From: a virus
IMG/VR virus record: IMGVR_UViG_3300028610_002873
DNA length: 64,000 bases
Direction: 5' to 3' (one strand)
This document shows, piece after piece, positions 11,591 to 32,613 of this stretch (position 1 is the stretch's first letter; the number at the start of each line of letters is the position of its first letter). The notes beneath the pieces are model-generated. The model was given only the letters and a program-made list of their open reading frames with translations, did not search any database and was not told the DNA's origin. The position numbers and the translations under genes were made by a program.

Positions 11591-11609
11591 TGTTTTACAA
11601 TGTTATACA
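11591..11609. promoter_or_regulatory. TGTTATACA-type dyad (TGTTTTACA a TGTTATACA) upstream of the chaperone/TMP operon
   Basis: Direct dyad in the tube-chaperone intergenic region. It belongs to a recurring motif family. Confidence 0.5.
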
Positions 11610-11634
11610 ATTATCTTACTTTAAAACCTCTCGA

Positions 11635-12078
11635 TTAAACAGGGAGTGGTCTATCAGCAGAAAATGTCCATTCAAGCATTGCTGGTTCACCTTCATTTGC
11701 GAGATCCAAATCGGGTGTCTTTTTCTTCAGAATCCACAATCCAGTCAAAGAGGTAGTCGATGCTATGTTTCCAAAGATACTGCGCTTAACAAGCGTTCCT
11801 ACCTTCTTGTAGAGCGGATCTACAGGATCTCTACCTTGAACAAACCAAAATTGTAATGCTGTGCGCTCTGCAACATGATGTTCAAAGGTTGTTCCTGTAA
11901 ATTCGATTGGTTTGCTATTACCACCAGATGCTTTAGTTCTATCTGGTAAATCGACAGCTTCAGTTTCATCTTCAAATCCTGTAAGAGTTGCAAAAACAAT
12001 CGGAGGAAGGCCGACGATTATTAATGAATAATTATTTACAGGAATATGACCAGCTTGAACCGATCCTTGTAAAACCAT
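11635..12078 (-). CDS. contractile tail tube protein, 147 aa
   Basis: Size and position after the sheath gene fit. The N-terminus (IPVNNYSLIIVGLPPIVFATLTGFEDETEAVDLPDRT) resembles the gp19/TIGR02241-type tube family. Confidence 0.75.
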   Translation of the reverse strand: MVLQGSVQAGHIPVNNYSLIIVGLPPIVFATLTGFEDETEAVDLPDRTKASGGNSKPIEFTGTTFEHHVAERTALQFWFVQGRDPVDPLYKKVGTLVKRSIFGNIASTTSLTGLWILKKKTPDLDLANEGEPAMLEWTFSADRPLPV

Positions 12079-12109
12079 ATTGTTCTCCTTTTTTAATCAA
12101 CTAAAAATA

Positions 12110-14752
12110 TTATGTTTCTTCTGTAACTCCCAATTTCGAAATTCTGATAATGAATCTCTCAACGGTATCTGCCAATCTCAATTGAATTTCTGCATTCAAA
12201 TCGCCAGCAGCTCTTGTGGCATCAGTGTTATTTTCATCATCAATTTTAATTCGAGCAGCATCATCGACATCTTTACCTCGAATTGCGCCTTTGGCAAATT
12301 CAGGAATAAAGAATGCTCTAAATGCTGAAATAAGACTTTGTTGGGCCTCATCATCATTAAGTGCGAAAATAATGAAATCAAAGTTTTCAAGAAAGATGTT
12401 TTCAAAGTGAGACATCGTTTCGCGTTGGTGTTTGAATTTAAATGCTGTATCAAGACCAACAGTACGATCACCCCACATAATGAAGTTACCTTCTTTACGT
12501 TTGATAATATTAATTCCAGCAGGATTTAAAAATTCTTCATCCAATTCTTTTCCTTCTAAACCGTCTGGAAGTTTAACGATATTTGAAAGAATAACATCAA
12601 CACCAGCTGCTGCTTTATGAAATCCATCGAAATCATTTGCTACTCTAGCTTCTTTTCCATGAATAGCACCAGTCAGGCTAATTAATTTATTTCCTGGTCC
12701 TTCTGTATTTACAACAAATGCAAATGATGGAAAATGAACAACTCCAAAATCATTTTTTCCAAGTGTTTCAGAAATAAATTCATCAACTGCTTGTTCATCA
12801 ACAATATTGGATGGAACTTCATATCTATATTGCCAATTTTGACTTGCAGCAAATGCTACCCCTGCTTTTTGTACAGCAGCAACAGTGTTACCTGGACTTG
12901 CCAATTTAACTAATCCAAGATTTCTATTTCTTAAGCCTTTTAATGCTGAAGTTCCGGTATTATAAGCATCAATAAAATCTTGGTCAGCAATTTCAGAAAG
13001 TCCATCAAACCCAGCACTCAACTCCTGAATATATTCGACTCTAAAATTATCACCCAATGCTGCATCAACTGTCATATCTGATCCAGCTGCAACTGTTATT
13101 GAGCCAGCAGTATTAGAAACAATTCTAAAACGCTTTCTTCTTTCAATAACATTTGGAATTAAAATCCCATCAACAAGTTTACCAACTTCAAGTGGACAAA
13201 CTCGAAGGATAATCGTGTCGGCGACTGCAAATACTTTTGTCGAATCCTTTGAAGTATCAATAATTGTGAAACCAACTCCAAATTCATTTGGTGCTGCAAA
13301 CGCAACTCCTGAAGTTACTGTAAGACCAGTCAAGAATGGCATTTTTTCAGAAACATAATCCCAAATTTGATCTAATCCACCTGCAAGTGTAGCTCCGCCC
13401 CAAGTTGGTTGACCACCACCTCCAGCGGAAGTTGTAGTAAATGCATTACCAGCAAGACCTGCTGTTTGCGCAAACAAATCCATCGTGGATGCTGATGCTT
13501 TTTCAGCAAAAAGAAGATCAAGCAACAACACATCTTGGCTTGCATTAATAAACGCTACGAGATTATCAAGCGTTGCTTCCGCTGAACCGCCAATTAAAAC
13601 TTCAGCAGTTGCATCTGCAACTACAGTTTTGAAAGTGATTGTCTTACCATTAATTACAACAGTATCTGCATCAGCAGGTTGACCAGGGAAAGTTGCAAGA
13701 CCTGCGGCTCTTGCACCAGCAGTCGATACTGTCAAAGTTACTCGGTCTAAAATAACGGATGCTCCAAGAGTCAATGGCGCTGCTTTTGCAGTTGCAGCAG
13801 CAACAGAAGAAACTACTTCATCATGAATTTTTGCAGTCAATACTGTTGAAGTAAGTGTCAATGATTTACTAAACACGTTTGCTGGTCGAATTGCAGCGCT
13901 AACTGATCCAACAAATAAATCTTCTGCTTTAAGTAAGAAATCAGCATTTGGATCATCATTAATGGTATTTAAAAAATATTTCAATGAATTTGGATCAGAA
14001 CTAAGATTATCTAAATCTTTTACTTTAACTGCGATTCCACCTTCGACCAAATAAACTTCAAGCCCCCATTCATCAGCAGGTTGGTCTAAACCTTCTTTTA
14101 TTAAAACAGCTAAAGCTAATCCATCATTTAAAAGTTCAGCAGAAAATAATAAATTCGCACTTCCATCAATTTCAACTACTAAATCAATATCAGATGGTAC
14201 TGTAATAACTCCTAATGCGGTATTTGAAAGAATTTCAAAAGATTTTCCAGGTACAGCAGAAAGTGTTAATTTCCCACCTGCTAATTCATCTTTTTTCAAA
14301 CCAGCTGGTATATTAGTAAATGTGATTGTAGTAGGAGTAATAGCGGCATAAGAATCAACATGTTTTTGTTTCTTTCCAGCCCAACGTCCACCATTTCCAG
14401 CAAGCCATTTAATTGAATCGCCACGAACATCAAGACGATTTTTTTGAATTAATTCAGCGGCTTTTTCATTTCCATCAGTTACTCGACTAAGCCATAATGA
14501 GCCAGCAGCGGCACCTTGGTCAAAAAAATCAAAAGCGGCATCAGGACCAAGTGATTCAGGAATTCGATTTCCTGCTTTAAATTTAAATTGAGTTTCATTT
14601 AGGGCAAGAAATGCTTTTCCAACCGGGCCTTTTTGTAAAACGGTAGTATAAGCAGTCGTTCCTAAAGCGCCTGGTTCAATTGTACCAGCGGCTTGTTCTT
14701 CAATGATTGCAACTCCAGCACCCCTTAACGGTCCAAATCTTCGTTGTGCCAT
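12110..14752 (-). CDS. contractile tail sheath protein with large inserted domains, 880 aa
   Basis: N-terminus GVAIIEEQAAGTIEPGALGTTAYTT and C-terminus AIHGKEARV...NPAGINIIKRKEGNFIMWGDRT are typical of sheath proteins. It lies directly upstream of the tube gene. Confidence 0.85.
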   Translation of the reverse strand: MAQRRFGPLRGAGVAIIEEQAAGTIEPGALGTTAYTTVLQKGPVGKAFLALNETQFKFKAGNRIPESLGPDAAFDFFDQGAAAGSLWLSRVTDGNEKAAELIQKNRLDVRGDSIKWLAGNGGRWAGKKQKHVDSYAAITPTTITFTNIPAGLKKDELAGGKLTLSAVPGKSFEILSNTALGVITVPSDIDLVVEIDGSANLLFSAELLNDGLALAVLIKEGLDQPADEWGLEVYLVEGGIAVKVKDLDNLSSDPNSLKYFLNTINDDPNADFLLKAEDLFVGSVSAAIRPANVFSKSLTLTSTVLTAKIHDEVVSSVAAATAKAAPLTLGASVILDRVTLTVSTAGARAAGLATFPGQPADADTVVINGKTITFKTVVADATAEVLIGGSAEATLDNLVAFINASQDVLLLDLLFAEKASASTMDLFAQTAGLAGNAFTTTSAGGGGQPTWGGATLAGGLDQIWDYVSEKMPFLTGLTVTSGVAFAAPNEFGVGFTIIDTSKDSTKVFAVADTIILRVCPLEVGKLVDGILIPNVIERRKRFRIVSNTAGSITVAAGSDMTVDAALGDNFRVEYIQELSAGFDGLSEIADQDFIDAYNTGTSALKGLRNRNLGLVKLASPGNTVAAVQKAGVAFAASQNWQYRYEVPSNIVDEQAVDEFISETLGKNDFGVVHFPSFAFVVNTEGPGNKLISLTGAIHGKEARVANDFDGFHKAAAGVDVILSNIVKLPDGLEGKELDEEFLNPAGINIIKRKEGNFIMWGDRTVGLDTAFKFKHQRETMSHFENIFLENFDFIIFALNDDEAQQSLISAFRAFFIPEFAKGAIRGKDVDDAARIKIDDENNTDATRAAGDLNAEIQLRLADTVERFIIRISKLGVTEET

Positions 14753-14779
14753 AACTTTTTACCCCTTTTTATAGTTCAT

Positions 14780-14798
14780 AGTATAACAGTGTTTTACA
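14780..14798. promoter_or_regulatory. degenerate inverted TGTTATACA-type dyad (aGTATAACA g TGTTTTACA) 27 nt upstream of the sheath ATG
   Basis: Intergenic location; member of the motif family. Confidence 0.45.
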
Positions 14799-14812
14799 TT
14801 TCAACCAAAAAA

Positions 14813-16144
14813 TTATTGTAATGATGTAATTACCCCCAAACCACCATCCGCGACAAGTGGTACATCTTTTGACAATTTGTCATAAAAACTCACTGCTAAT
14901 AGTTCAAAACTACCTGTTGCAGTCATTGTATCAGTAGCGTCATCGGCACCACCAGCTTCTTTAGAAGCTTTATTACGACTCGTGTCAATTCTATCGACTA
15001 AATCTAGATCATATCCACTTGCTAGTCCAAAAGAAGTGATTGATTTTTTGTTTGCAAAAAACCTATTAAAATCATTTTGAAGTAATATTTGATCTAATTG
15101 TCGATCAGTAAATATAGCAAATTCAAATCGGATTGCTTCTTGTCTGGCACCAAATTGTAGAACAGCTGTAAGATTTGGTTTATCCCTTACAAAATCTTTT
15201 CCAATATTATTTGTATCTTGAACAGTAAAACCGGGCCTATCAAATGCACGAATGCTTTCAAAAATCATGCTAGGAAATTCTGGTACTTGAAAAAAGTCTT
15301 GTGATTGTCTCACATAAATCCTTGGAAAATATTCAAACGTTATTTCAATCAACTTTCCTAATGCAATCGGTGCATCGAAAGTTACAACCCCCGGTTCATT
15401 TGTAAATCCATCCTGTCTTAACGTGCCAAGTGCATAACTGAGAAATTTATTATCCAATTTTAAAGGATCGTCATCTCTAACAATGACCTTCTTAATTCCA
15501 GTTATGTTGTAATTTTTGTTTTCAAGCACAGTATTTAGATCAACGGTTGAGGCCGTTGCTGTTGCTCGATAAACGACTCGGCTCGTAGACCTGAATTCAT
15601 TATTCAGTGTCCTTATTACACTATCATAAATAAGATCTTCTAAAAATTCAATATCAAATTCACCAAGAATTTTTAATTCTTTGACTTTGGGTGTTAAAAG
15701 TGGGTCAGTTGTAACCAAATTAATAATTAAACCTATTGATTTATCTAAGATTACTGTAGCAATTGGAAGCGTATCAAAATTTGCATTTAAAACACTTTCA
15801 GTCATCCAATCAGAGGCTCCAGCTGTTGCCCATACTGATCCATTCCAAAATAAATCACTCCCAGTAGTTCTTACTTTAAATCCAATACTTGTTCCAGCTG
15901 GTAAATCTTCAAATAAACGTGCTTCAAATTTTAACCATTTTTGAACCGCATTAGGAGTAATCAATGGTGTTTTAATATAAAGATTAGCATCCAAAGGAAA
16001 TTTATCATTTACATCTGCTTTTAATTGAATGAAAGTTTCAGCTTTATTTTCTGTATTTAATCTTATTTTTGTTGCGTCTGAAAAGATAAGATCAGATCGT
16101 ATGCTTTCGTCAAAAGTAAAATTTTTAATTAATCGATTTATCAT
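14813..16144 (-). CDS. hypothetical virion (neck/tail) protein, 443 aa
   Basis: Large ORF immediately upstream of the sheath gene, with a 1-nt overlap with the upstream ORF. Confidence 0.5.
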   Translation of the reverse strand: MINRLIKNFTFDESIRSDLIFSDATKIRLNTENKAETFIQLKADVNDKFPLDANLYIKTPLITPNAVQKWLKFEARLFEDLPAGTSIGFKVRTTGSDLFWNGSVWATAGASDWMTESVLNANFDTLPIATVILDKSIGLIINLVTTDPLLTPKVKELKILGEFDIEFLEDLIYDSVIRTLNNEFRSTSRVVYRATATASTVDLNTVLENKNYNITGIKKVIVRDDDPLKLDNKFLSYALGTLRQDGFTNEPGVVTFDAPIALGKLIEITFEYFPRIYVRQSQDFFQVPEFPSMIFESIRAFDRPGFTVQDTNNIGKDFVRDKPNLTAVLQFGARQEAIRFEFAIFTDRQLDQILLQNDFNRFFANKKSITSFGLASGYDLDLVDRIDTSRNKASKEAGGADDATDTMTATGSFELLAVSFYDKLSKDVPLVADGGLGVITSLQ

Positions 16145-16788
16145 TATCTGTCCTTAAAATCTGGTGCTCCAATTTTAGTTTTTCTAAATGCTTCTTCTAC
16201 AGCTAATCTCCAATTTCTTTTTATTACTTCTTGTACAGCTTTATTTTTAAAAGTTCTTGTTAAAAATTTTCTTGGTGGTACACGAAAAGTATCTCTGCCA
16301 GATCCCGTATTAACATTTGCTGCTTTACGTGCGCTAGCTGCTTGTCTTCCCCCTTTTTCTCTTAATGCAGCTGCAATTGCTGCCCTCATTTCTTGAGTAA
16401 CAGTAATTGTATAGCCCTCATGTAATAATAGCACAACTTTTTTCATATCAAACGGCGGACTTCCACTTCCTTTACCGCCAGTAGTTTTTATATTTTTTAC
16501 AATTCCAACTTCAGCTTCAAAACTACTTTTTATTTCTTTTGATATTGCCTTTAATAGATTTCTTTGATCAATTAAAGGCGTATTGCCTCTTTTTAAAGCT
16601 ATTGTTAAAGGTGAATTTTTTGTAAATTTTTTCTGGCGTATTGATTCTTTTACTTTTCTAACTAAAAATAATGCATTTTTAATTGTGGATTTTCTAATTT
16701 CTCTTTCTAAAATTTTTAAAGTAATGCCTGAAGTCAAAAAGCGTTGATAATTAACAACGTCACCTGTAATGATGATTCCATCAGACAT
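16144..16788 (-). CDS. putative tail completion / HK97 gp10-like or virion morphogenesis protein, 214 aa
   Basis: Position fits, and the motif TPLIDQRNLLKAISKEI is reminiscent of the tG-L-rSi motif of these families. Confidence 0.4.
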   Translation of the reverse strand: MSDGIIITGDVVNYQRFLTSGITLKILEREIRKSTIKNALFLVRKVKESIRQKKFTKNSPLTIALKRGNTPLIDQRNLLKAISKEIKSSFEAEVGIVKNIKTTGGKGSGSPPFDMKKVVLLLHEGYTITVTQEMRAAIAAALREKGGRQAASARKAANVNTGSGRDTFRVPPRKFLTRTFKNKAVQEVIKRNWRLAVEEAFRKTKIGAPDFKDR

Positions 16789-17228
16789 TATCCTATTGGG
16801 TTCCTATCAGTAAATAACGCGCGAATAAAACTAAATCCACTACCACTAAAATGAGAACTTAAATCACCTGCACTATGAACAAAATAAAGAGGATTAGATA
16901 AAACTCTTTCACCACCATTTGAATCAATAAATTTTATAATTCTATCACCACGTTTAATAGTTTTGCCTAAATCTGTTAAATCTTTAGGACGAATAATTAT
17001 ATAACCACTTGCTTCTTCATCAGTACCAAGTTGGCTAGAATGTTGAACCTGTTCTGTATTTCCGAATACTACTTGTGCTGGAATTACAAATAAAGTTCGA
17101 ACAATATTATTAATTGGTTCTCTGCGACCACCTGGACCAATTGAATACGTTGTTTCGCCTTTATCAATTGATTCAATTTCAAGATTGATTGGTTCAATCA
17201 ATTCAGGTTCATCAAGAAAATTAGACAT
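16788..17228 (-). CDS. putative head closure / head-tail adaptor protein, 146 aa
   Basis: Called on size and synteny only. Confidence 0.35.
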   Translation of the reverse strand: MSNFLDEPELIEPINLEIESIDKGETTYSIGPGGRREPINNIVRTLFVIPAQVVFGNTEQVQHSSQLGTDEEASGYIIIRPKDLTDLGKTIKRGDRIIKFIDSNGGERVLSNPLYFVHSAGDLSSHFSGSGFSFIRALFTDRNPIG

Positions 17229-18183
17229 TATCGATATCCCGTAAAATTTTAAAACTTCCAGATACTAAAAATGGTCTTTTATAAATAGCCAAAATATTAT
17301 TGACCTCTTTATTCCCAGTAGCTTGAAAACCGCGATTAATACCACGATCTTCAAAAAATTCTTTTTCATGTAAATCAACTTTAACTCTACGTAAAGTTCC
17401 AGCAGAAGTTCCAGCAGCTTTTGTACTTCCAAGTTTTGCAATAAGATCAAAAGCAATTAACTTTGTTGCTTTTTGAACTAAAATAGGTGTACTTCCATCT
17501 GGTTCTAAAAATCCAAAACTACCTGTAATTTCAGTTCTAGTATCTTTTAAAAATACTCGATTTGTAAAAACGCCTGAAAAGATACTATCAGTTCGAATAT
17601 TAATTTTAATTTTTGGATTCCATCTGTCATCTTGAGGTTGTGCTCGACCTTTAAAAGCTTCAAAATCTTTATCTTCACCTTCTAAAAGTTCAGTTGAAGT
17701 ATCATTGATTATCAATTTAGTAATTTCAATAATAGGCACATCAAAATGCATCATATGTGAATTATTACCTTCAACTTTAAATACACCAGTTCGTTTATTG
17801 AAAAATCGACCTGTATGCCTATCAATTAATTCCATTGCTTCTAATATTAATTTATTACCCGTTGCTTTTGGAATATCATCAGAATGAAGTAAATTAGCAG
17901 TTCCATTTGCAATTGGATTTTCAGCACCTGTTTTAACAATCCTGAGTCGATCTGGTGAAGCAAGAATTTCAATAATGCAGTCTGGAAATCCTGCTTGGGA
18001 TATAACATCTCCAACTAAAGGTACAGGATCTGCACCAGCAACAACAAAATTATAAATATCTCCGCTGACATCTATTGTTTTAGAGGAAAGAGTAATACTA
18101 GATTTTTTAACTTTAGGATTACCAGCAATCGATAATTCTAAAAGTAAATCTGCATATTCAATATAATTACCTGTGTTATCCAT
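17221..18183 (-). CDS. hypothetical head-tail connector region protein, 320 aa
   Basis: Called on synteny only. Confidence 0.4.
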   Translation of the reverse strand: MDNTGNYIEYADLLLELSIAGNPKVKKSSITLSSKTIDVSGDIYNFVVAGADPVPLVGDVISQAGFPDCIIEILASPDRLRIVKTGAENPIANGTANLLHSDDIPKATGNKLILEAMELIDRHTGRFFNKRTGVFKVEGNNSHMMHFDVPIIEITKLIINDTSTELLEGEDKDFEAFKGRAQPQDDRWNPKIKINIRTDSIFSGVFTNRVFLKDTRTEITGSFGFLEPDGSTPILVQKATKLIAFDLIAKLGSTKAAGTSAGTLRRVKVDLHEKEFFEDRGINRGFQATGNKEVNNILAIYKRPFLVSGSFKILRDIDNV

Positions 18184-18212
18184 TTAGACTCCTTATGACA
18201 GTATAAGTTACC

Positions 18213-18518
18213 TTATAACGGTAATCCATCCCAAAAACCCTTTTTTAAAGTATCAGATTTTGATTTTTCTTCTTCATCAATTTTTAAAGCTTCTGCTTTA
18301 TTTACACATACCCCATTTCGACGAACTTTCCCTGGAGGGCATGGTCCATTAAGATGTGCAGATTTTTTTGTTCTACACATTGAATGAGCTACAGCTTGTG
18401 CTTGTTCAGGCGACATTCCTTCTCTAATTAAAATAGGAATACCACGCGCTACACAAGCTTGTTCTGATTCACCAGGTTTTCTTTCTACTTTATTAATATT
18501 TTTCATTTTACCTTTCAC
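18213..18518 (-). CDS. hypothetical protein, 101 aa, Cys-containing
   Basis: ORF in the gene chain. Confidence 0.45.
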   Translation of the reverse strand: MKGKMKNINKVERKPGESEQACVARGIPILIREGMSPEQAQAVAHSMCRTKKSAHLNGPCPPGKVRRNGVCVNKAEALKIDEEEKSKSDTLKKGFWDGLPL

Positions 18519-18519
18519 A

Positions 18520-19017
18520 TTATATTTTTACAGTTCTATTTATTTGTATTTTACCTGAATCACTTTCTCTTATTAAAAAAATACTGTTTTTTCCATCAAA
18601 CGATATCTCGTCATTGTTATTCAAAAAACCAAAAGTATTATCTACTCCGGTAACAAAACTATAATATAGTTTTCCTGTACCCAAAGAAATAACAGTACAT
18701 TTTAATTGATTTACAACTGCTTTTATTTCTAATTCAGATGTGGTAACTGTTTTTTTAATGGTAGTTAAATTATTTGATAATTTTTTATTATTCCATTCAG
18801 GTTTAGCTATTTGTGTTAAAATTTCATTATAAGTATATTTTATATAACCCTTCATAATATCTGGAAATTTTGTGTTAAATTTTAATATAGTTCTAGATCC
18901 ATCCGCAGTAAATCTTAAGGCATTACTATTATTTAACGAGGCGTTTATCATAGAATCTGTTATGTCTTCTTTATTTATAATAATATAAGTTTTTTGATTA
19001 CGGAACATCATTAACAA
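18520..19017 (-). CDS. hypothetical protein, 165 aa
   Basis: ORF in the gene chain; its start overlaps the upstream ORF by 20 nt. Confidence 0.45.
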   Translation of the reverse strand: MLMMFRNQKTYIIINKEDITDSMINASLNNSNALRFTADGSRTILKFNTKFPDIMKGYIKYTYNEILTQIAKPEWNNKKLSNNLTTIKKTVTTSELEIKAVVNQLKCTVISLGTGKLYYSFVTGVDNTFGFLNNNDEISFDGKNSIFLIRESDSGKIQINRTVKI

Positions 19018-20020: not shown

Positions 20021-20021
20021 T

Positions 20022-20624: not shown

Positions 20625-20626
20625 AA

Positions 20627-21660: not shown

Positions 21661-21675
21661 TTTTTTCTTTCCCCA

Positions 21676-21768
21676 TTAATTATTTGCCCAAATTCTGACT
21701 AAAACATCAATTGTAAGCCTAAATTGCGACCAAAACATTAATTGTAAGCCCAAATTCTGACCAAAGTA
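21676..21768. repeat. three tandem 31-bp units; the third is the real 3' end of ORF 21738..22028
   Basis: Units 21676-21706, 21707-21737 and 21738-21768. On the minus strand they read VLVRIWANN*, VLVAI*AYN* and LVRIWAYN*. Confidence 0.8.
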
Positions 21769-22028: not shown

Positions 22029-22029
22029 G

Positions 22030-22422: not shown

Positions 22423-22470
22423 TCGAACATTCCTTTTGTGCTAGGGCCAATTAAGGGATGCTAAAAACTT

Positions 22471-22794: not shown

Positions 22795-22818
22795 ATTATT
22801 TAACCCCCTTTTTCATTT

Positions 22819-23094: not shown

Positions 23095-23106
23095 CTATTT
23101 ATCTAA

Positions 23107-24321: not shown

Positions 24322-24341
24322 TTTTAACCCCCTTTAAGGTT

Positions 24342-24360
24342 TGTTATACAGTGTTATACA
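24342..24360. promoter_or_regulatory. perfect direct dyad TGTTATACA g TGTTATACA, 20 nt upstream of the capsid ATG
   Basis: Read directly from the sequence; intergenic. Confidence 0.55.
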
Positions 24361-24374
24361 AACAACTCAAATCA

Positions 24375-25667
24375 TTATTTAGTTCGACCTGATCCAGACT
24401 TACCACTATTCGCTGCATTTCTTTTTCGAATAGAAGTACGAATATTATCTAAATTAAGTAAATCTTTAAATACAGATTCAGTTTTAGTTGTTTGATTTTC
24501 ATCATTATCATCATCTTCGTCGTCGTCATCTTCGTCATCTATGGCTCCAGATGCACCTGCTGTAACTTCGAGATCATCAAATCGTTTTTTAAGTTTGTCA
24601 GAACTAGTTTTTACTTCAGTTTTGACAGATTCAACTGCTTCTTCAATAGATTCAACTGCTTCTTCCAGATTTTTTATCTGCTTCACAGTTTCATCCATAG
24701 ATTTTTTCATTGAAGAACCTTTCTTTTTTTGGCCCATCACCGAAGCGATAAGACTTGAAAGAGATTCAGCAATTTGTCTCAAAGTAGCCAATCTTTGAGA
24801 TGAAATTTTAGCACCTGCTTTTTCGACTTGATTTTCATCATCAGAATCTTCGTCAGAATCTTCATCTTCATCAGAATCTTCATCAGATACTTCCGATTTT
24901 ACAGCCTTGATACGGTCTAGAAGTTCAGCATACCCAGTTTCAGTTTCATCAGACTTGTTTTTGTCTGCGACCTGTTCAACTTGGTTTGAACTAGCTAACA
25001 TAGTAACTTGCTCTAAAGCTGCCATGTTTAACGCGACGACTTCATTAAGAGCACTCGCACTGCTCTCATGTAACGTTAACGACTGCTCTAACAAGCCTTT
25101 CAATTCACCTATATTCTTTTCTAACGCTTTAATACGTTTTTCTAAATTCATATTAATTTTTCCTTTTTCTTGATCATCAGAATCTTCATCTTCATCAGAA
25201 TCTTCATCAGTTTCTTCGTCTGAATCAACTTCATCTGTCTTTTCAAACTTTTCAGGATGTTCTGATTTGAATTTTTCAAAATCAAAATTACCATCCATAC
25301 AAGCGCCAGCAATATCATGTTCCATTGCACATGAGAAACAAACAGAACAAAGAAGTCCGATCTTAGGTTCGCTTCCACCTACTTGTTTACAGAAAACGCA
25401 AGTGCCTTCATCTGAATCAGATTTTTTTACTTTTTTAATCCAATTCCCACCTTTTACTGCTGCATCTTTATAAAGTTCTTGCAAAGATTGCGCTATATTT
25501 TTAAAATTTTTCGCATTGGCGTTTTTAAATAAATAAAATGATTCACCAATTGCTGGTTTATCGACACTTGAAACCTCATGCACTTCAAGATCAACAATTC
25601 GTTTCTTCCCATTTGATTTAATTTTCTTTTTTCTTTTTTTCATTATGAAGCCCTCTTTATTTCCCAT
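24375..25667 (-). CDS. scaffolding protein candidate: acidic repeats, coiled coil and Cys cluster, 430 aa
   Basis: Lies between the protease and capsid genes. Features are DSDEDEDSDEDSDD-type runs, heptad-like segments and the cluster CVFCKQ...CSVCFSC. Confidence 0.6.
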   Translation of the reverse strand: MGNKEGFIMKKRKKKIKSNGKKRIVDLEVHEVSSVDKPAIGESFYLFKNANAKNFKNIAQSLQELYKDAAVKGGNWIKKVKKSDSDEGTCVFCKQVGGSEPKIGLLCSVCFSCAMEHDIAGACMDGNFDFEKFKSEHPEKFEKTDEVDSDEETDEDSDEDEDSDDQEKGKINMNLEKRIKALEKNIGELKGLLEQSLTLHESSASALNEVVALNMAALEQVTMLASSNQVEQVADKNKSDETETGYAELLDRIKAVKSEVSDEDSDEDEDSDEDSDDENQVEKAGAKISSQRLATLRQIAESLSSLIASVMGQKKKGSSMKKSMDETVKQIKNLEEAVESIEEAVESVKTEVKTSSDKLKKRFDDLEVTAGASGAIDDEDDDDEDDDNDENQTTKTESVFKDLLNLDNIRTSIRKRNAANSGKSGSGRTK

Positions 25668-27436
25668 TTCATATTAGAATTGGGAGTAAATTCAATACAT
25701 TTGGTTTTTTGTCCTTCTTCAATAAGTCTAGCACGACCACCGATACTAAACCCAGTAATTTTTCCAGTTTTGATTAAAATCCATACTTCATCATCAAAAA
25801 CTTTAACAGTCATTACCCACGTTCCTTTAACAATCTTTCGACCATTAATCTCAAAATTGACAGGAGCCATATAACTTTCGACAACAGCAATTTTTCGACT
25901 AAAGTCAACATGCATAAATCCTCGATCTGCTTTGTCATCTAATCCGATAGAATTTAAAAATTCTGGGTCATTTTGAAATGTAAGCTTAATCATGTAATTA
26001 TGTCCAGCATTTTCAATTTCTTCTGCACTTACAATTTCATCTTGAAGATCAATACTTTCAGGAATTAAAACTGGCCCCATTACAAGTCTTTTTTCTTCAT
26101 CTTGTTTTACAATATCATATTTTAACGATTTAAATTTTGTTCCTTTTCGAAGTTCTAATTGTTTCAAAAATTCATTAAATGATAAATGTAATGGCCAAAC
26201 AATATCACTATCTAATTTTTTAACCCCTGCTTTTAATCGACCAAAAACACCTTTAATGCCGGATGTTAATTCTTTAGTTCGAAAAGAATCTCTTTTAAAA
26301 TCATTTGGTTTACGTTGGCGTAAACGAAAGAAATTTTCTGTTTCATCTACTTTACTTGATTTAAAATCATGATCTTTAGCCCATGATACTGCTTGAGATC
26401 TTGAAAATTTCTTTTTATCAAAAAGCAAAGTTTGAATAACTAACGATTCTTGTTTTTCTAAATAGGTTTGTTTTAATGCAATAATTCTTTTTTTCATATC
26501 TAACATAGATTCAGATTCCTTTGCTTCATTGTCTTCAAATGAATCAAGTGTGTCAGTTCTAGTTTCTGTCTGATTTTCATTTTGGACAGCATTTTCTGTT
26601 AATGAATCCGCTGCACTTGCATCTAAACTTTCTGCTACTTGTAATTCTTCTTTCAGGAAGCCTACTACTGCTTCGACTCCTTCAGTTAGTCGAACTCGAA
26701 TCAATGTAGCTTCCTGAAACTTATCATTTGATAATACCATAAAAGTGAAGGCATCATCTCTTTCTTCGGATGCCCGTACATTTAAACCATGATCCATTAC
26801 AAATCGTCTTGCTTGCCCTATATCAACAAATCGTTGACGCGAAAGAACAAGTGATTGAATTCGTAATCCATCTCCTAAACGACTCAAATTTTTTATTAAT
26901 GCTTTAAGACATGCTTCTTTAAGCACCGCATTAAAATTTGGACTATTTAATCGTTTAATCAACGCAAAATCCATTTCAACAGGATAATTTTTATCCCTTT
27001 TAATTTTATAATCTTTAAGCCCTGGCTTATTTTTTACAGAATTTTGAACTTCAGAAATTAAATCGCCTGGAAGAAGTGATACGAATTTCTGTTCATTAAT
27101 ATCCAAAATATGAGTATGAAGTCCAGATAATGTTGTGTTCTCTACTTGTAATTCATGTGGGTGTGGTGTGCCTGAATCAGTTTCAATAACCTGTATTCCT
27201 TCTTGAGTACGAATAGAGATTCTATGTATATGTTTAGGCTGTGATTCAGCACCTACTTCACTTTCTTTTGCATTAATTGGATGCCAGTGTTCTCCATCCA
27301 ATTCAGTCATAATTAATCTATCTTGAACAAAAAATAAATGTTTGTGAATTCCATCTTTGAGAGTTTTTGTAGGCGACTCAAGTCTGTGAAGATGAGCACC
27401 ACCTTCACCGATAACTTTTATTTTTTTATTACCCAT
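25643..27436 (-). CDS. prohead protease candidate, XkdF-like (Peptidase_S78_2-type) C-terminal domain with long N-terminal extension, 597 aa
   Basis: C-terminus VMGPVLIPESIDLQDEIVSAEEIENAGHNYM...GFMHVDF...VVESYMAP...GTWVMTVKVFDDEVWILIKTGKITGFSIGGRA matches the XkdF family pattern. The N-terminus carries six HxH motifs. Confidence 0.75.
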   Translation of the reverse strand: MGNKKIKVIGEGGAHLHRLESPTKTLKDGIHKHLFFVQDRLIMTELDGEHWHPINAKESEVGAESQPKHIHRISIRTQEGIQVIETDSGTPHPHELQVENTTLSGLHTHILDINEQKFVSLLPGDLISEVQNSVKNKPGLKDYKIKRDKNYPVEMDFALIKRLNSPNFNAVLKEACLKALIKNLSRLGDGLRIQSLVLSRQRFVDIGQARRFVMDHGLNVRASEERDDAFTFMVLSNDKFQEATLIRVRLTEGVEAVVGFLKEELQVAESLDASAADSLTENAVQNENQTETRTDTLDSFEDNEAKESESMLDMKKRIIALKQTYLEKQESLVIQTLLFDKKKFSRSQAVSWAKDHDFKSSKVDETENFFRLRQRKPNDFKRDSFRTKELTSGIKGVFGRLKAGVKKLDSDIVWPLHLSFNEFLKQLELRKGTKFKSLKYDIVKQDEEKRLVMGPVLIPESIDLQDEIVSAEEIENAGHNYMIKLTFQNDPEFLNSIGLDDKADRGFMHVDFSRKIAVVESYMAPVNFEINGRKIVKGTWVMTVKVFDDEVWILIKTGKITGFSIGGRARLIEEGQKTKCIEFTPNSNMKWEIKRAS

Positions 27437-27445
27437 ATGTTTTCC

Positions 27446-27464
27446 TGTTATACATTGTTATACA
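27446..27464. promoter_or_regulatory. perfect direct dyad TGTTATACA t TGTTATACA, 9 nt upstream of the protease ATG
   Basis: Read directly from the sequence. Confidence 0.55.
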
Positions 27465-27547
27465 GACTACTTAAAAAATATCAAACCTTTTAATTTTTTG
27501 AAAGCTTTAAAATATAATCCCCTAATTAATATAATAGCAAATAAATA

Positions 27548-28621
27548 CTAAACTGGCACGATTTCAGATCTACATCTGAAATGCGCTGGTGGAACAATTG
27601 GTACACCGTTTCTTGCCAACAAATTCGCAGCATCATTTGAATTCAATTTTTGGCCTCTAGATAAATTAAATTCCGATAAATCTTTTCTCCATTTGAAGTT
27701 TTCTACGATGTCTTGGCTATTCTTTTGTTTAAGAATATCCTGCATTTGACTCTGCGCTAACTCAATTGGAAAAACTCGACCATCCATTTGTAGACAAATA
27801 GTAGAAGTTCGATTATCAACTATAGAAGACCATCGAAGTTGTGTAATTCTGGCTCCGACCATAAGATTTAAATTACTAAAAGCCCTTGCTCTAGTAATTG
27901 TTGTTGCGGATAATCCTTCAAAATAAGATGTAATAGATTTTTGGCCATTTAATAAAATCGATCTTGGTACAAGTTGTTGAAAACCACCAATTCTTTTAGA
28001 TATTTGATTTCTTAAAACCACACCAGCTTCTTTTTTAGACAATCCTTTTTCAAAAACTCGTTTTTGAATTATATTAATTAAAGTTGGTTTTATATTTTTA
28101 AAAAAATAAGCTCCAACTGCAATAACATGAAGCCTATTTAATTCTTTTAAAGTAGATGTATCTGTTTCTGTGAATGATGAACTTAATTCTGGAGTGATTT
28201 CTCCTTCATCTTGTTTCCTAACAATTGATGTTATTTTTATATCAAGATAATAAAGACTTTTTTCTTTAGTTTTGAATCGACGAACAAATTGTTTTCTTTC
28301 TATTCTATAAGCTGTTTTTACATCTCTTTTAATTCGTTTTTGAACTGCTGTGTCAAATGTAGTAAAAGGTTTGTCTAAAGCTGCAATCATACTTTTTGTT
28401 TCGCTTTTTGTAACCTTCTTATTTGAACGTAAATTGATTTTAGAAACGACATTATTCACTAATTTAGTAGCTCTACGATTCCATTCTCTCATAATAAAAC
28501 GGGTAAGATTTTTTTCAATTCGATTAATTGCACGACCATCATTATCCCCAATAGACTTCTCTAAAATAATTGAAGTCAAATCGAAGATAATTTCTTTTTG
28601 ATCAAATGTGAGTTGTTTCAT
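27548..28621 (-). CDS. head morphogenesis protein, Mu F / SPP1 gp7 family, 357 aa
   Basis: Motif WSSIVDNRTSTICLQMDGRVFP ... PPAHFRCRSEIVPV. It follows the portal gene with a 4-nt overlap. Confidence 0.8.
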   Translation of the reverse strand: MKQLTFDQKEIIFDLTSIILEKSIGDNDGRAINRIEKNLTRFIMREWNRRATKLVNNVVSKINLRSNKKVTKSETKSMIAALDKPFTTFDTAVQKRIKRDVKTAYRIERKQFVRRFKTKEKSLYYLDIKITSIVRKQDEGEITPELSSSFTETDTSTLKELNRLHVIAVGAYFFKNIKPTLINIIQKRVFEKGLSKKEAGVVLRNQISKRIGGFQQLVPRSILLNGQKSITSYFEGLSATTITRARAFSNLNLMVGARITQLRWSSIVDNRTSTICLQMDGRVFPIELAQSQMQDILKQKNSQDIVENFKWRKDLSEFNLSRGQKLNSNDAANLLARNGVPIVPPAHFRCRSEIVPV

Positions 28622-30369
28622 TTAAAATAATCGGAGCGATCAGAGCCGAATCCCTCTTTATCTAATTCAAGTTCCAAAATATGTTGAATATCCATTAAAT
28701 TTTTAATTAAAGTGTTTGGATTCTTAAAAAGTTTTTTCAAGACTTTTTGTTGTTCAGCATTTGGTGCTTTAGGTATTTGACCTTGTGGGGCAAAAGTTCC
28801 ATTGGCATTTGCATTTCCAGCTGAGTGCATCAACATAGCAAGGCTAAGAGAGAACGGAATATCAGGATGAAAGAATTTCTTAAATTCTTCAGGAATATTC
28901 TCATCAACTTCGGGAAGGTCTTGATTCAAAACATCACTCAGAAGTTCCCGCGCAATCCTTGGGCTCAATCCACCTGTCTTCTCGCCCCCAACAAGAATTC
29001 TCACTATATCCTCATCATTAGTGACATTTGGACTATTTGATTTGAAAGTCCAAAATCGAATACCTTGTTGCATCATAATCTTGTTAAAAGCAGTATCAAA
29101 ATCTTCTCTTTCTGGATTGTATACATACTTCTCAGCAAATCTTTCAGATTCTTGAGCAATAGATCGATTTAAATTTTCAACTCTACCTACCATTAATGGG
29201 GGAACTCTAAACGATCTACGCAATTTATCAGCGTTATTTGAATCATATTTTTGCCACAATTGATCAGAATGTTGAGCCTGGGTAAGCGGTTTAATTTCAA
29301 TTTTTACATTAGATGGATTGGATAAACCATCGTGACTTGATTCGGCTTCAATCAATAAAAATTTTGAATAATTAGAATTACCTTTTACTTGTGAATCAAC
29401 AAACTCTCTCAATCTTTGAACTGATCCAGATGTTAACATTCCACCATTTGCTAAAATTGCCATTGATGGAACATGGTTATTCATCATTGTTAAAATATTA
29501 GTTTCATCCGTTTGTCTAGATCCTTTAATGGAAATAATATTGCCTGTGAATCGTGGCATTCCATAAGGTGTTCGTCTTGTAGTTGGAATTTTAAAATGAA
29601 AAAGTTCATTAGCATGGAATTTTTTATTCAAGCGTTTATTAGCAACATCTCCATTTCGGAGATCAATAATTCGAGTATCACCAAATTCCTTGAAGTAAAC
29701 TTTCTTTGTACCTACAACTTGTACATAGCGTCTAAACCGTCGCATAAAACTTCGTCTTACCAGTTTCAAATCATCTCTTACAAAAAAAAGGCTCATTCTT
29801 GTAAGTTCTTTATCAGGTTTAGAAATTAAAACCGTTGCAGCAGAAATATGATTAATACATGAATATCGTTTTGCATTAGTAAATGAAGGAATTAATTCCC
29901 ACCAAGCATTCCCTGTTTGTTCTCGATCTTTTCTGCTTTTTCGTCTTAGTTTAACAAAAGAATCCTCTGGATTAGGATAAGTTAAAAGGCCATCAAGAAA
30001 TGCTTTTTCTTCAGCCATTTTTGATTTATTTGCTGCCATTTGGCTTTCAGTCATTTTTCTAGATTTTAATCTTCCACCAAAACCATCAATACCAATTTCC
30101 ATTTGTTCAATTGTTTGACCTAATTCAGTAGAAAACTCTGAAAGAACGGCCAATTCACTTAATGATAATGGTGGAGCAACGATTTTACTTCCAAGTCTTA
30201 ATTGTTCATGTTCAGTTTCTAGAATTTCATTACTTTGAAATTTTTTAATTTGGGTTGGGCTTACACTTATAACTGTAGCTTTAAGAATATGACGATTACC
30301 TTTTTCATCTATAACAGGAATTTTTTTACTAACAGTATTTTTTGATTTTTTAATTAATTTTTTTGCCAT
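28618..30369 (-). CDS. portal protein, 583 aa
   Basis: Called on size and position between terL and the Mu F-like gene. Confidence 0.75.
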   Translation of the reverse strand: MAKKLIKKSKNTVSKKIPVIDEKGNRHILKATVISVSPTQIKKFQSNEILETEHEQLRLGSKIVAPPLSLSELAVLSEFSTELGQTIEQMEIGIDGFGGRLKSRKMTESQMAANKSKMAEEKAFLDGLLTYPNPEDSFVKLRRKSRKDREQTGNAWWELIPSFTNAKRYSCINHISAATVLISKPDKELTRMSLFFVRDDLKLVRRSFMRRFRRYVQVVGTKKVYFKEFGDTRIIDLRNGDVANKRLNKKFHANELFHFKIPTTRRTPYGMPRFTGNIISIKGSRQTDETNILTMMNNHVPSMAILANGGMLTSGSVQRLREFVDSQVKGNSNYSKFLLIEAESSHDGLSNPSNVKIEIKPLTQAQHSDQLWQKYDSNNADKLRRSFRVPPLMVGRVENLNRSIAQESERFAEKYVYNPEREDFDTAFNKIMMQQGIRFWTFKSNSPNVTNDEDIVRILVGGEKTGGLSPRIARELLSDVLNQDLPEVDENIPEEFKKFFHPDIPFSLSLAMLMHSAGNANANGTFAPQGQIPKAPNAEQQKVLKKLFKNPNTLIKNLMDIQHILELELDKEGFGSDRSDYFK

Positions 30370-30379
30370 AAAATTTCCT

Positions 30380-31936
30380 TCATATTAATCCAGGTTCTTC
30401 ATCTCTTGTTTTTTTTGATCCACCAAAAGCTAAATTTACTGCAATATCAAGAGCATCAAATAAATCTTTAAATCGACCTGACGGCATTTTTAAAAGATGT
30501 TCCATTAAATCATGCATCCCTTCAAGAAAATAAATTTGCCCTCTTTCAAAATACGCTGAAAGTTTCCAAGCCCTCACTGTTTTATCTTTATCGGTAAAAA
30601 CTGGTACTGCTCTTATATTAGCTAATTTTTCATCAGTTTGCATATCCTGAATTAAGGCCCGTTGATATCCATTAGCTTCAATTCCCAACTTAATTGGGTC
30701 ATATCTGTCAAATTCACGCTTAATAATAGCCTTTTGGTCAGTATAATGCGTTACAGCATTATGGTAACTTAATACATAAATATTTTTTGTTTTCTTGTCA
30801 ATTCCGATTGTAATGTGCGCAAATTTATCAGCATCATCACTTTGTTTAATCGCTAAATCCGCTCCTTGTATTTTAATCAATTTACTAACATTGATATCTT
30901 CCAGACGATACCATTTGAACCAATCAATCTTAAATATTTTTCCTTTCATTCCTTCGACATCATTTTGCATTTGAGCATTAAAAATAATTCTGCCCATAAT
31001 TTTACGTAATCGAAGTAAATATCGAACACTTGCTTTTTCAGGCCATAAAGCTAAATACTTTTTTGACTCTGGAGTATTTCGTTTTAAAAGTTTTTTAATT
31101 TCTATTAAAGCTGGATAAACTTGATAATATCGTTTTTTTATTTTTCCTTTTTTAGTTTTTTTACAAAGAATATTATGTTGAAGATACCCCCACAAGTCTT
31201 CTGGATAATATCGAGTACCAATCAACGACATTTCCCCACCATCAGGTTCTAAACAAGGTAATAAAACTTTCAAAAACCAAGTTCTAATTTTTTCACGTTG
31301 TCCTTCAGTGCGTGAATTTTCTTCATCAACTAAATCATCACCAATAATTAAATCAAAATGCTTTGAGGCTGGACTTCCACCAACTCCCATCGTTGTAATT
31401 GTATCTTCTTTAGCATCTGATTTTCTTGGTGCTACTCTTATATTACCATCATTCCAAATCGTTCCAATATGATTACCAAATAAAGCTACGAATTCTTTTC
31501 TTTTTAATTTCTGTTTAATTTCAGAAAGAAATGTAACAGCATTATCATCAGTTTTTGAAGCTATAAGAATTCGAATATCTGGATTTTGTATTATTTTTAA
31601 AACACAACGAGAAATATTTAAAATTGTTGATTTACCATGACCTCTAGGAGCTAAAGTTAAATTCCATCGTTGATCTTTTCCATCTACTTGATTAGGGATA
31701 ACTAAAGAATTAAACTTAATTCCAAGATACATAGCCCAATGAAAATCTTTAATCTGATAACCTAAAACTTCAGTCATTAAAAGATCCATTCGATCATGAT
31801 TCTCAATCTGGTCTTTTAACCAATGTTTCTTAGCTAGCCTTTTCTTTTTTAATTCATCAACAATTGTTTGACGATTTCTTAATTTTTTAGTTTTAGACCC
31901 ACCTGAAGTTTGTTCGCTATCAGTAATAAAAACCAT
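30380..31936 (-). CDS. terL: terminase large subunit, 518 aa
   Basis: Walker A-like LAPRGHGKST and Walker B-like DLIIGDDLVDEEN are present. The C-terminal nuclease-like region has GADLAIKQSDDADKFA, GIEANGYQ and KDLFDALDIAV. Confidence 0.9.
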   Translation of the reverse strand: MVFITDSEQTSGGSKTKKLRNRQTIVDELKKKRLAKKHWLKDQIENHDRMDLLMTEVLGYQIKDFHWAMYLGIKFNSLVIPNQVDGKDQRWNLTLAPRGHGKSTILNISRCVLKIIQNPDIRILIASKTDDNAVTFLSEIKQKLKRKEFVALFGNHIGTIWNDGNIRVAPRKSDAKEDTITTMGVGGSPASKHFDLIIGDDLVDEENSRTEGQREKIRTWFLKVLLPCLEPDGGEMSLIGTRYYPEDLWGYLQHNILCKKTKKGKIKKRYYQVYPALIEIKKLLKRNTPESKKYLALWPEKASVRYLLRLRKIMGRIIFNAQMQNDVEGMKGKIFKIDWFKWYRLEDINVSKLIKIQGADLAIKQSDDADKFAHITIGIDKKTKNIYVLSYHNAVTHYTDQKAIIKREFDRYDPIKLGIEANGYQRALIQDMQTDEKLANIRAVPVFTDKDKTVRAWKLSAYFERGQIYFLEGMHDLMEHLLKMPSGRFKDLFDALDIAVNLAFGGSKKTRDEEPGLI

Positions 31937-31937
31937 T

Positions 31938-32591
31938 TTATCTTTTTCTCACAATAAATTTAATTTTAGTTTTAGCTTTAGTTTTAATTTTAGTCTTTGA
32001 TATATTTTTATTTTCCAATAATTTTTGAGGAATAAATTTTCTTACTTCTTCTGGCATAACCCCTAAAAGTTCAGGACGCATATCAATCACACCCGTACTC
32101 AATCGTTGAATATTTTCAACTTCTTTTTGTATTTCTTCTTTTACTTCTTTTTCAGACATTGTACTAAAACTCATCTCACCTGATACTTTAAATTCAGTAG
32201 CTTTCTTTTCAATAAATCCAAAATCTTGACCCATTTTAATAACAGAATCATAAATTTCTTTTTTCTGTTTTACAGCGGCTACCAACGCTGTCCATTGACC
32301 TTTATTTCTAAATTTAACTTTTAATTCATCTAGTTCTTTAACCATCTGTCTGGATTTCAATAAATAGTCTGAATAAACACCAACTGAATCAAGATTTTCT
32401 AAAACGTCTTTATCATTTCGTAAAATTTGTTGTTTATAATGGGATAAATCATCTGGTCTAATTTCCAGTTGTTCCATTATTTCATAATCAGTATAATTTT
32501 TTCCTATTAAACGACGAATGTCCGACATCAAATGGCGTTGTTGTTTTAAACTTCGTTGAGCAGGTTTTTTTTTAGACTTATTTTTTTTCAT
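31938..32591 (-). CDS. terminase small subunit candidate, 217 aa
   Basis: Lies immediately upstream of terL. It has a basic N-terminus and a helical central region. Called on position only. Confidence 0.45.
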   Translation of the reverse strand: MKKNKSKKKPAQRSLKQQRHLMSDIRRLIGKNYTDYEIMEQLEIRPDDLSHYKQQILRNDKDVLENLDSVGVYSDYLLKSRQMVKELDELKVKFRNKGQWTALVAAVKQKKEIYDSVIKMGQDFGFIEKKATEFKVSGEMSFSTMSEKEVKEEIQKEVENIQRLSTGVIDMRPELLGVMPEEVRKFIPQKLLENKNISKTKIKTKAKTKIKFIVRKR

Positions 32592-32594
32592 TAT

Positions 32595-32613
32595 TGTTAT
32601 ACAGTGTTATACA
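32595..32613. promoter_or_regulatory. perfect direct dyad TGTTATACA g TGTTATACA, 3 nt upstream of the terS-candidate ATG
   Basis: Read directly from the sequence. Confidence 0.55.

Follow-up and report, generated by a model that had tools for sequence, protein, structure and literature searches.

A dyad at operon heads across an uncultivated phage genome, probably the operator of a regulator family that also heads bacterial zinc-uptake operons

The virus record IMGVR_UViG_3300028610_002873 of IMG/VR, of which we analyzed a stretch of 64,000 nt (the window), carries a short A/T-rich dyad in front of operon after operon. On balance, and with modest confidence, we consider this dyad to be a genome-wide operator for a family of ribbon-helix-helix (RHH)-like zinc-knuckle regulators that covers −10/+1 of the phage transcription units. 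The site has a fixed architecture, lies between genes, is kept at orthologous positions in relatives, changes from lineage to lineage, is associated with small regulator genes in related phages and recurs, as the same operator type, before cellular homologues of those genes. That the regulator protein binds the dyad, and that binding represses, we infer from the sequences. On this reading the finding is a genome-wide operator set for a small repressor-type protein, a kind already known; its link to bacterial zinc-uptake operons was unexpected.

The window has a G+C content of 31.6%, with all real genes on the minus strand, and is part of a circularly assembled contig of 106,127 bp (ena:ERZ27251120:k141_3673653). 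Together with 9.6 kb upstream and 9.7 kb downstream from the same contig it forms a composite of 83,352 bp; the remaining 22.6 kb of the contig, record positions 35,829-58,469, lie outside this composite. The exact unit, TGTTATACA/TGTATAACA, occurs 19 times in the window against a mean of 0.93 in dinucleotide shuffles (largest shuffle value 6). All 12 sites of the composite that match the 17-bp core GTWWWACANTGTWWWAC with at most one mismatch are intergenic, where intergenic DNA amounts to 7.7%; at three mismatches the core is at background level, with 26 coding and 10 intergenic matches. A first-pass annotation of the window had left to a word count whether the motif is similarly frequent in coding regions, and on these numbers it is not.

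Late sites stand at the start of the terS, protease, capsid, sheath, tail-chaperone and lysis operons; 7 of the 11 intergenic gaps of at least 30 nt in the late region hold one. Further sites are clustered in the early control regions. The sites are the following, the early palindromes being given without strand.

32595..32613, minus strand: direct dyad TGTATAACAcTGTATAACA, 3 nt before the ATG of the terS candidate and 20 nt past the stop of a 113-aa zinc-knuckle open reading frame (ORF)
27446..27464, minus strand: direct dyad TGTATAACAaTGTATAACA, 9 nt before the protease-like ATG; a T6 tract ends 9 nt upstream
24342..24360, minus strand: direct dyad TGTATAACAcTGTATAACA, 20 nt before the major capsid ATG
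14780..14798, minus strand: dyad TGTAAAACAcTGTTATACT with the second unit inverted, 27 nt before the tail sheath ATG
11591..11609, minus strand: degenerate dyad TGTATAACAtTGTAAAACA; a 289-aa ORF with its ATG at 11519 follows after about 71 nt
L077:20552-20570, outside the window: lysis-cassette dyad, 22 nt before the first lysis gene
L077:14855-14873, outside the window: degenerate tail-fibre dyad, 18 nt before the 702-aa tail-fibre gene
63808..63826: perfect palindrome TGTATAACAgTGTTATACA, distal operator of early control region B
63771..63789: perfect palindrome, proximal operator of region B, ending 4 nt before a sigma-54-type −24 element
60527..60545: perfect palindrome in region A, directly following a sigma-70-like TTGACA-16-TATTGT
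60477..60495: one-mismatch palindrome TGTATAgCAcTGTTATACA, likewise in early control region A
60440..60458: perfect palindrome, proximal operator of region A, ending 4 nt before a sigma-54-type −24 element
58214..58232: lone perfect palindrome, within 1 kb of non-coding sequence (57423-58455)

The perfect direct dyads (32595-32613, 27446-27464, 24342-24360) and the degenerate ones (14780-14798, 11591-11609) stand where the first-pass annotation had put them, and its start-codon distances of 3, 9, 20 and 27 nt are correct. It had seen no copy inside the coding sequences that it inspected; no dyad of the window is in coding sequence, but one exact single unit stands alone at 58681-58689 in ORF 58456-58794. 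The six early palindromes that it called perfect (58214, 60440, 60477, 60527, 63771 and 63808, each to +18) are correctly placed, although the one at 60477 has a mismatch. Its statement that the upstream copy always reads TGTAWAACA applies inside the window but fails at the degenerate tail-fibre site and at two sites of relatives (L019:4926 and L022:11288), which are reversed relative to the gene. We note that the gap 21661-21737 has no dyad and holds a different imperfect direct repeat, TTTTGGTCGCAATTTAGGC / TTTTAGTCAGAATTTGGGC. A scan of IMG/VR with the exact early palindrome returned scattered contigs with one occurrence each, none of them from known relatives.

Closer inspection of the unit TGTATAACA reveals that it is nearly palindromic (TGT-ATA-ACA, reverse complement TGT-TAT-ACA), and every site fits the form TGTWWWACANTGTWWWACA (TGT-W3-ACA-n-TGT-W3-ACA). 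The site is thus a pair of 7-bp pseudo-palindromes, GT-W3-AC, set with a centre-to-centre distance of 10 bp across an A-n-T spacer (GTATAAC-AnT-GTATAAC or GTTATAC). Since each unit is nearly its own reverse complement, the "direct" dyads of the late region and the "inverted" dyads of the early region are two forms of one site; in fact, the difference between them is confined to the central three A/T pairs of one unit. At the late sites the right-hand W3 varies (ATA, TAT, AAA, TTT), with TGT and ACA kept. The same site is present in both regions, and the earlier proposal that one DNA specificity joins early and late control is borne out in this respect.

Relatives keep the site at the orthologous positions before terS, protease, capsid and sheath, in the following forms.

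L002, L003, L005, L006, L200: (T/G)GTATAAC unit, direct form
L007, L032-34, L204, L206, L207: GTGATAC-AAT-GTATCAC, palindrome
L001: GTGTTAC-AAT-GTAACAC, palindrome
L031, L203: GGCATAC-AAT-GTATGCC, palindrome

Several relatives carry perfect 17-bp palindromes (GTGATACAATGTATCAC, GTGTTACAATGTAACAC, GGCATACAATGTATGCC), lineage by lineage. The 10-bp register, the A-n-T spacer and the central ACA-n-TGT are constant across lineages, and both arms change together. Such coupled changes argue for an oligomeric DNA-binding protein that co-evolves with its operators, and not for a sigma −10 element. In an L007-type contig of 67.5 kb, the exact 17-mer occurs six times, together with one variant, always 16-24 nt before a start codon. 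These sites precede terS, protease, capsid, sheath, a tail-fibre gene, the lysis cassette and a replication operon encoding AAA_24, YqaJ, RepB-primase-like and DnaB proteins. Because the 17-mer also heads the replication operon and the lysis cassette, the site does not single out late genes but is a general mark of transcription-unit starts.

The variation between lineages also bears on two readings that would dispense with a phage regulator. Direct repeats with a period of 10-11 bp are typical of OmpR/PhoB-type regulators, and a host protein such as a response regulator could read the 10-bp repeats of the dyad; alternatively, the dyad could be an RNA-level element of the 5′ untranslated region, a stabilizing hairpin or a translational operator, as the palindromic versions could form 7-bp RNA hairpins. 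However, the unit differs between close phages, with capsids about 80% identical, which fits a phage-encoded factor, and the direct dyads of the window phage, which are unable to form a hairpin, stand where relatives have palindromes. The spacing to the Shine-Dalgarno sequence and the AUG varies from 3 to 71 nt, and no Rfam family matched in the window. A host regulator or an RNA element is, in our judgment, very improbable.

A phage-encoded oligomeric regulator, the reading that we favour, has a candidate in the relatives. Between their lysis and replication modules lies a small gene, opposite in strand to all others and with dyad units directly upstream, as listed here.

L019:7396-7196: small opposite-strand regulator gene
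L028:309-548: small opposite-strand regulator gene
L200:10001-10243: small opposite-strand regulator gene
L201:779-1069: small opposite-strand regulator gene
L071:8087-8554: fused tandem version of the regulator gene

In the L007 type, the fused tandem gene adjoins the palindrome that heads the replication operon. The phage proteins have 67-96 residues, with a strand-like K-A-F-R-C, two helices, N-x-S-E-x-I before the second of these and a CPxCxGxG zinc knuckle, a pattern that appears RHH-like. In the alignment, phage members show AFRC / helix / N-x-SE-x-I-x-KA and cellular members ITFKVD...NKSEFIRNSILEAL. No Pfam family covers the regulator family, and a sequence search of the PDB matched the CxxCxGxG motif only (Anti-TRAP, DnaJ, TMEM106B). 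One match to the regulator profile, L218, proved to be a false relative, a DNA polymerase with a CPTC motif.

The same profile search returned cellular homologues (P0015-P0020), one of them from a metagenome-assembled genome (MAG) of Spirochaeta. These form an unannotated family of about 82-87 aa with an RHH-like N-terminus and a Cys/His-rich C-terminus. Where the downstream genes are readable (P0016, P0018 and P0020), each opens an operon of ZnuA, ABC ATPase and permease genes; P0017 (L214) lies on a 1-kb contig whose neighbouring genes have no annotation. Four cellular loci with different flanks (L208, L211, L214, L215) have exactly one GTAWWAY-N3-GTAWWAY match each, of the form GTATTAY-N3-GTAWTAC and immediately upstream of the regulator gene.

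L208, L215: GTATTATaaaGTATTAC (GTATTAT-aaa-GTATTAC type), direct
L211: GTATTATtaaGTATTAC, direct
L214: GTATTACtacGTAATAC (GTATTAC-tac-GTAATAC), inverted

We find GT-N3-AC units 10 bp apart, with direct and inverted arrangements both present, in the phage and upstream of the four cellular homologues. The regulator gene lies beside its own putative operator at these four loci as well as in the relatives L019, L028, L200 and L201. That the cellular homologues carry the same unit type, in the same register and in either orientation, is the strongest argument for phage dyads being operators of this protein family. In the three direct cellular cases TTGACC is followed by the dyad, and this placement between a −35 element and the gene argues for repression. 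Judged from its sequences, the cellular family is probably an undescribed family of metal-responsive repressors.

Regarding transcription in the phage itself, homology backs the protease start and the N-terminus of the terS product. With the terS and protease ATGs only 3 and 9 nt past their dyads, any transcription start must lie within or just upstream of the dyad, which agrees with the earlier suggestion that start sites are very near the start codons. The same spacing leaves no room for a downstream −10 element and start, and for this reason we rejected a class II or −35 (or −41) activator site, a MerR-type spacer and a P1 Lpa-type −22 site; boxes of NifA (TGT-N10-ACA), CRP, LexA and TyrR were rejected for mismatched spacing, judged by inspection only. 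The dyad thus overlaps the −10/+1 region, and its position by itself is compatible with a core promoter, with an operator placed on one, or with both functions. Weak −10-like hexamers (TATATT, TACAAT, GATAAT) are found in the window phage at or just before a T5-7 tract, which ends 8-10 nt upstream of most dyads in all lineages. The right unit of the sheath dyad reads TGtTATACT, which is extended −10-like and faces the gene, and the dyad units upstream of the regulator gene in relatives also read TGtTATACT, a good extended −10.

A positively controlled late or middle promoter would draw on several of these features. The dyad would then be the core promoter of the non-early operons, used by host RNA polymerase with a phage sigma-like factor or activator, and transcription would start at its 3′ end and give very short or leaderless mRNAs. 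Such a promoter would suit the short and narrow distance from dyad to ATG (3-27 nt here, 16-24 nt at seven L007-type sites, with the Shine-Dalgarno sequence alone between) and the lack of a −35 element where there is yet a T tract. The palindromic relatives have TACAAT, often TGnTACAAT, at the centre of the site, and at 10 of 14 sites the middle base, read in the direction of the gene, is A, a bias that is weak (about p = 0.09). The centre A-n-TGTA also resembles the phiEco32 gp36 element, AATGTA at −11.5 (PMC12276001), whose geometry would place the terS transcript start at the A of the ATG. Both the gp36 promoters and the late promoters of T4 (TATAAATA, gp55/gp33/gp45) are A/T-rich elements near the start codon, without a −35, at the heads of late operons, and the first-pass annotation had likened the dyad to the −10-only T4 type.

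The likening to T4, however, is not supported. The element is a dyad or palindrome and not a single asymmetric −10, and palindromic symmetry with coupled changes on both arms is unexpected for an element read by a sigma factor. Nor is it restricted to late genes: the early control regions hold a cluster of these sites, and in relatives an identical copy stands before the replication operon and before the gene of the regulator itself. Some sites of relatives are reversed relative to the downstream gene, and the dyad of the cellular homologues, between −35 and gene, has the geometry of a repressor site. Neither the 83 kb examined of the 106-kb contig nor about 40 kb from the replication and lysis regions of relatives yielded a gp55-like protein, a sigma r2 domain or a phage RNA polymerase. 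We consequently regard a positively controlled late promoter as unlikely, though it is a rival with real points in its favour. Nothing independent supports the plus-strand reading, TGnTATACA directed away from the genes. The sole sigma-related match was a weak region-4-like helix-turn-helix at the C-terminus of a 131-aa ORF (46171-46566; E = 5e-4, below the Pfam cut-off). The Cys/His-rich N-terminal half of this ORF is HNH-like, as read from the sequence itself rather than from a domain search, and the ORF may be a homing-endonuclease remnant rather than a regulator.

If the dyad is instead an operator, each 7-bp unit would be bound by one regulator dimer, resulting in a dimer of dimers on one face of the DNA. 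The most likely binder would be the RHH-like family with the C-terminal CxxCxGxG zinc knuckle (about 67-96 residues) that relatives encode; a related two-module protein is encoded just upstream of terS in the window. Each early region has two or three perfect palindromes that overlap promoter-like elements, among them the TTGACA-16-TATTGT that immediately precedes 60545-60527 and the sigma-54-type promoters that follow 60458-60440 and 63789-63771 by 4 nt. The late operons, the lysis operon and, among relatives, the replication operon have a single site apiece. With sites at the start of early, replication, packaging, head, tail and lysis operons, one protein could hold the whole phage genome. 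The most likely effect would be repression or silencing, in which initiation at overlapping weak promoters and same-strand read-through from upstream operons are both blocked.

The second of these effects could also act by itself. In a pure elongation block of the stoperator style, the late dyads would lack any promoter function and stop read-through polymerase, and the T tract 8-10 nt upstream would provide a weak rU:dA hybrid that favours transcript release; its position would fit the known distance from a roadblock to the polymerase active site. All genes are on one strand, there are strong sigma-70 promoters farther upstream (near 35.5 and 33.7 kb), and most late dyads have no strong terminator before them: when intrinsic terminators were considered there, a plausible hairpin was seen in the protease gap only. 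Repressors of the mycobacteriophage L5 type act in this manner at more than 20 sites in short intergenic spaces, and those sites share their sequence with the true operators (PMC9283540). The likeness to L5 and other cluster A phages extends to one specificity at early promoters and in short intergenic spaces, including those of late operons (PMC9283540), and to a site orientation that tracks the direction of transcription within the window phage, though it is reversed at some sites of relatives. In contrast, the L5 sites are asymmetric 13-mers that depend strictly on orientation and have a monomeric two-domain helix-turn-helix protein as their binder, whereas the sites here are dyads whose binder is probably a dimer of dimers with a different fold, and their orientation is not kept in relatives. 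Sites are also far fewer here (about 13 in 83 kb), and lysogeny of this phage is conjectural. Initiation probably takes place at the palindromes too, given the TACAAT and the extended −10 elements that they contain, and a block to elongation alone seems to us decidedly unlikely.

Several observations weigh against an RHH-like operator system. Repression does not explain what turns the late operons on, and pure repression leaves the late promoters themselves to be explained, since upstream of the dyads or inside them there are only weak −10-like hexamers and T tracts (e.g., TACAAT in the palindromic relatives). The direct form of the dyad is conserved at the late sites of five phages, which suggests an orientation-dependent role that a purely symmetric binder does not explain. 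As for the protein, the Pfam RHH_1 model matches one member only (P0017), at E = 0.064, hhalign to NikR aligns helix B alone and hhalign to CopG gives nothing useful. The AlphaFold monomer has a predicted local distance difference test score (pLDDT) of 60, with helices at residues 46-53 and 58-73, as expected. The opposite-strand regulator gene of the relatives has no orthologue that we could find in the 83-kb composite, and a database profile search gave no protein from the 106-kb contig; by synteny, the gene is expected about 4-5 kb beyond the composite, in the remaining 22.6 kb. A database search with the 223-aa post-holin protein did not return the identical protein. Small winged-helix (TrmB/MarR-like) proteins that head the replication operon are alternative candidate binders.

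On the composite, the family profile finds one match (E = 1.6e-5 in that set).

32634..32975, minus strand: zinc-knuckle ORF of 113 aa (P0021), or 148 aa from the first ATG at 33080, with two helix-plus-CxxCxGxG modules

This ORF ends 20 nt before the terS dyad and has homologues upstream of terS in L001, L004, L007, L203, L204, L206 and L207. Its product is our candidate for the dyad-binding protein of the window phage. Counting against the candidate, its first module is without a clear helix A, and its AlphaFold model is unusable (pLDDT 43).

The proposed system resembles the known RHH repressors (P22 Arc/Mnt, MetJ with its met-boxes, omega of pSM19035, NikR) in that these are small proteins that read short pseudo-palindromic units about one helical turn apart or less, accept direct and inverted arrangements, and have their own operator before the regulator gene. 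Similarly to NikR, the cellular homologues described here join a DNA-binding part to a metal-binding part and head a metal-uptake operon. Unlike in those systems, the fold here is a predicted one and the regulon spans a whole 106-kb phage genome. To our knowledge, no named RHH system has the C-terminal CxxCxGxG knuckle or the GT-N3-AC unit with a 3-bp spacer. The repressor C1 of phage P1 provides another parallel, as P1 is a large myovirus in which one repressor controls many operons from many scattered operators. It differs in its asymmetric 17-mer operators and in P1 late promoters that use a separate activator, Lpa, and there is no sequence relationship. There is published precedent for a site with mixed orientations: omega, an RHH protein, recognizes 7-bp repeats with similar affinity when direct and inverted copies are combined (PMC9499535).

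The two early control regions, A (60360-60640) and B (63690-63960), are paralogous, with an identical 48-nt block (proximal palindrome, sigma-54-type element and ATTACAAT) and diverged flanks. Three promoters of the sigma-54 type were recognized.

63751..63766, minus strand: sigma-54-type promoter TGGCATgctcgTTGCA, 4 nt after the palindrome, facing the genes and not part of the dyad
60420..60435, minus strand: sigma-54-type promoter TGGCATgctcgTTGCA, 4 nt after the palindrome, facing the genes and not part of the dyad
L074:9599-9614, minus strand of L074: divergent sigma-54-type promoter, 21-36 nt beyond the right end of the window

All three read AAAC-TGGCAT-N5-TTGCA, for which about 0.06 occurrences are expected by chance in 64 kb, all lie in the early control region, and all have the GG at −24 and the GC at −12 of TGGCAC-N5-TTGCW. 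Among the ORFs scanned, none gave the Sigma54_activat match that would mark an AAA+ enhancer-binding protein, and a literature search found no paper describing the use of sigma-54 promoters by phages. A scan with AACTGGCAT-N5-TTGCA was too unspecific, with at least 120 stretches and no recognizable relatives among the matches listed. The sigma-70-type early promoters with a common core, as reported in the first-pass annotation, are present as well: ATTACAnnGTGTTAYAGT occurs on the minus strand at about 60607 and 57692, as extended −10 elements (about 60599-60607 and 57684-57692), and at about 35501, as part of a full TTGACA-17-TGtTATAGT (35493-35521). The TGTTATAGT of these promoters and the dyad unit TGTTATACA differ in the last two bases and are otherwise the same. 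The stretch 57423-58455, 1 kb without ORFs, contains G+C-richer patches, short inverted repeats and promoter-like elements besides its palindrome (58214-58232); it has no Rfam match at the gathering score. It might serve as an origin or packaging region or encode a non-coding RNA.

The structural part of the window (33 kb down to 0) encodes TerL, a portal protein and a head-morphogenesis protein, with tape-measure and baseplate genes at its low-coordinate end, and contains the genes that follow the late dyads.

31938-32591, minus strand: terS candidate, 217 aa
25643-27436, minus strand: prohead-protease-like ORF, 597 aa
23107-24321, minus strand: major capsid protein
12110-14752, minus strand: tail sheath, 880 aa
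ATG at 11519, minus strand: 289-aa ORF preceding the tape-measure gene

The part from 33 to 64 kb holds about 85 small ORFs, and matches are rare among them (dUTPase, Fic, a short tyrosine-recombinase domain, metallophosphatase, PagL). PHROGs searched with 86 ORFs of this part gave no transcription factor among the matches listed (25 of the 49 families matched), Pfam gave no match for ten ORFs of 58.4-63.6 kb, and no tRNA genes were found in the window. The 9.6 kb upstream of the window carry RecA, Mre11/Rad50-like and other genes, and the 9.7 kb downstream carry tail fibres, holin and lysis genes, with a terminator-like hairpin, GAGAGGAAGT...AGCTTCCTCTTTTTAT, in the gap that separates the holin gene from the first gene of the lysis cassette (L077:20968-21029, outside the window). 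The short tyrosine-recombinase catalytic domain (188 aa, 34419-34985) is preceded by a 155-aa ORF (34982-35449), a Fic/DOC protein is encoded at 37974-38573, and a Xre/MbcA/ParS-type antitoxin domain is encoded just upstream of the window. A PagL-like lipid A deacylase, encoded by an ORF of the 33-64 kb part, implies a Gram-negative host. The recombinase domain, the Fic/DOC protein, the PagL-like protein and the antitoxin are unusual features in a large myovirus with a strictly lytic cycle.

A megablast search of GenBank phages with the structural region found no match, and the protein-level matches to isolated phages are all below 35% identity. Relatives by capsid, at 72-84% identity, come from metagenomes with a G+C content of 28 to 50% and also occur on contigs of 71, 118, 157 and 280 kb in MAGs of Bdellovibrionales and Pseudobdellovibrionaceae (L203-L207); one MAG has two copies of a close capsid relative. 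The labels of these MAGs point to Bdellovibrio-like bacteria (Bdellovibrionales) as the host clade. Because the 157-kb contig JAWKNX010000004.1 and the 280-kb contig JBFWQY010000001.1 are larger than the 106-kb phage genome, they hint at a prophage state, and the phage may be temperate.

A further and more speculative extension, which we judge improbable as it stands, is that phages of Bdellovibrio-like predators captured a zinc-uptake regulator family as their master switch. Silencing and release, exerted by one zinc-dependent protein on GT-N3-AC dyads at every operon start, would then be tied to the metal status of the host, and the sigma-54-type early promoters, a separate lead in their own right, would supply a second input of host signals.

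In sum, the dyad sites yield a concrete regulatory map for an uncultivated phage lineage of about 100 kb, apparently of Bdellovibrionota, comprising an operator, the rule by which it varies, its positions and a candidate regulator. They also tie a phage operator to unannotated cellular regulators of metal operons with the same architecture, so that phage and bacterial sites inform each other. The units of the different lineages (GTATAAC, GTGATAC, GTGTTAC and GGCATAC) constitute a natural series for the reading of DNA by this protein family and may define immunity groups among these phages.

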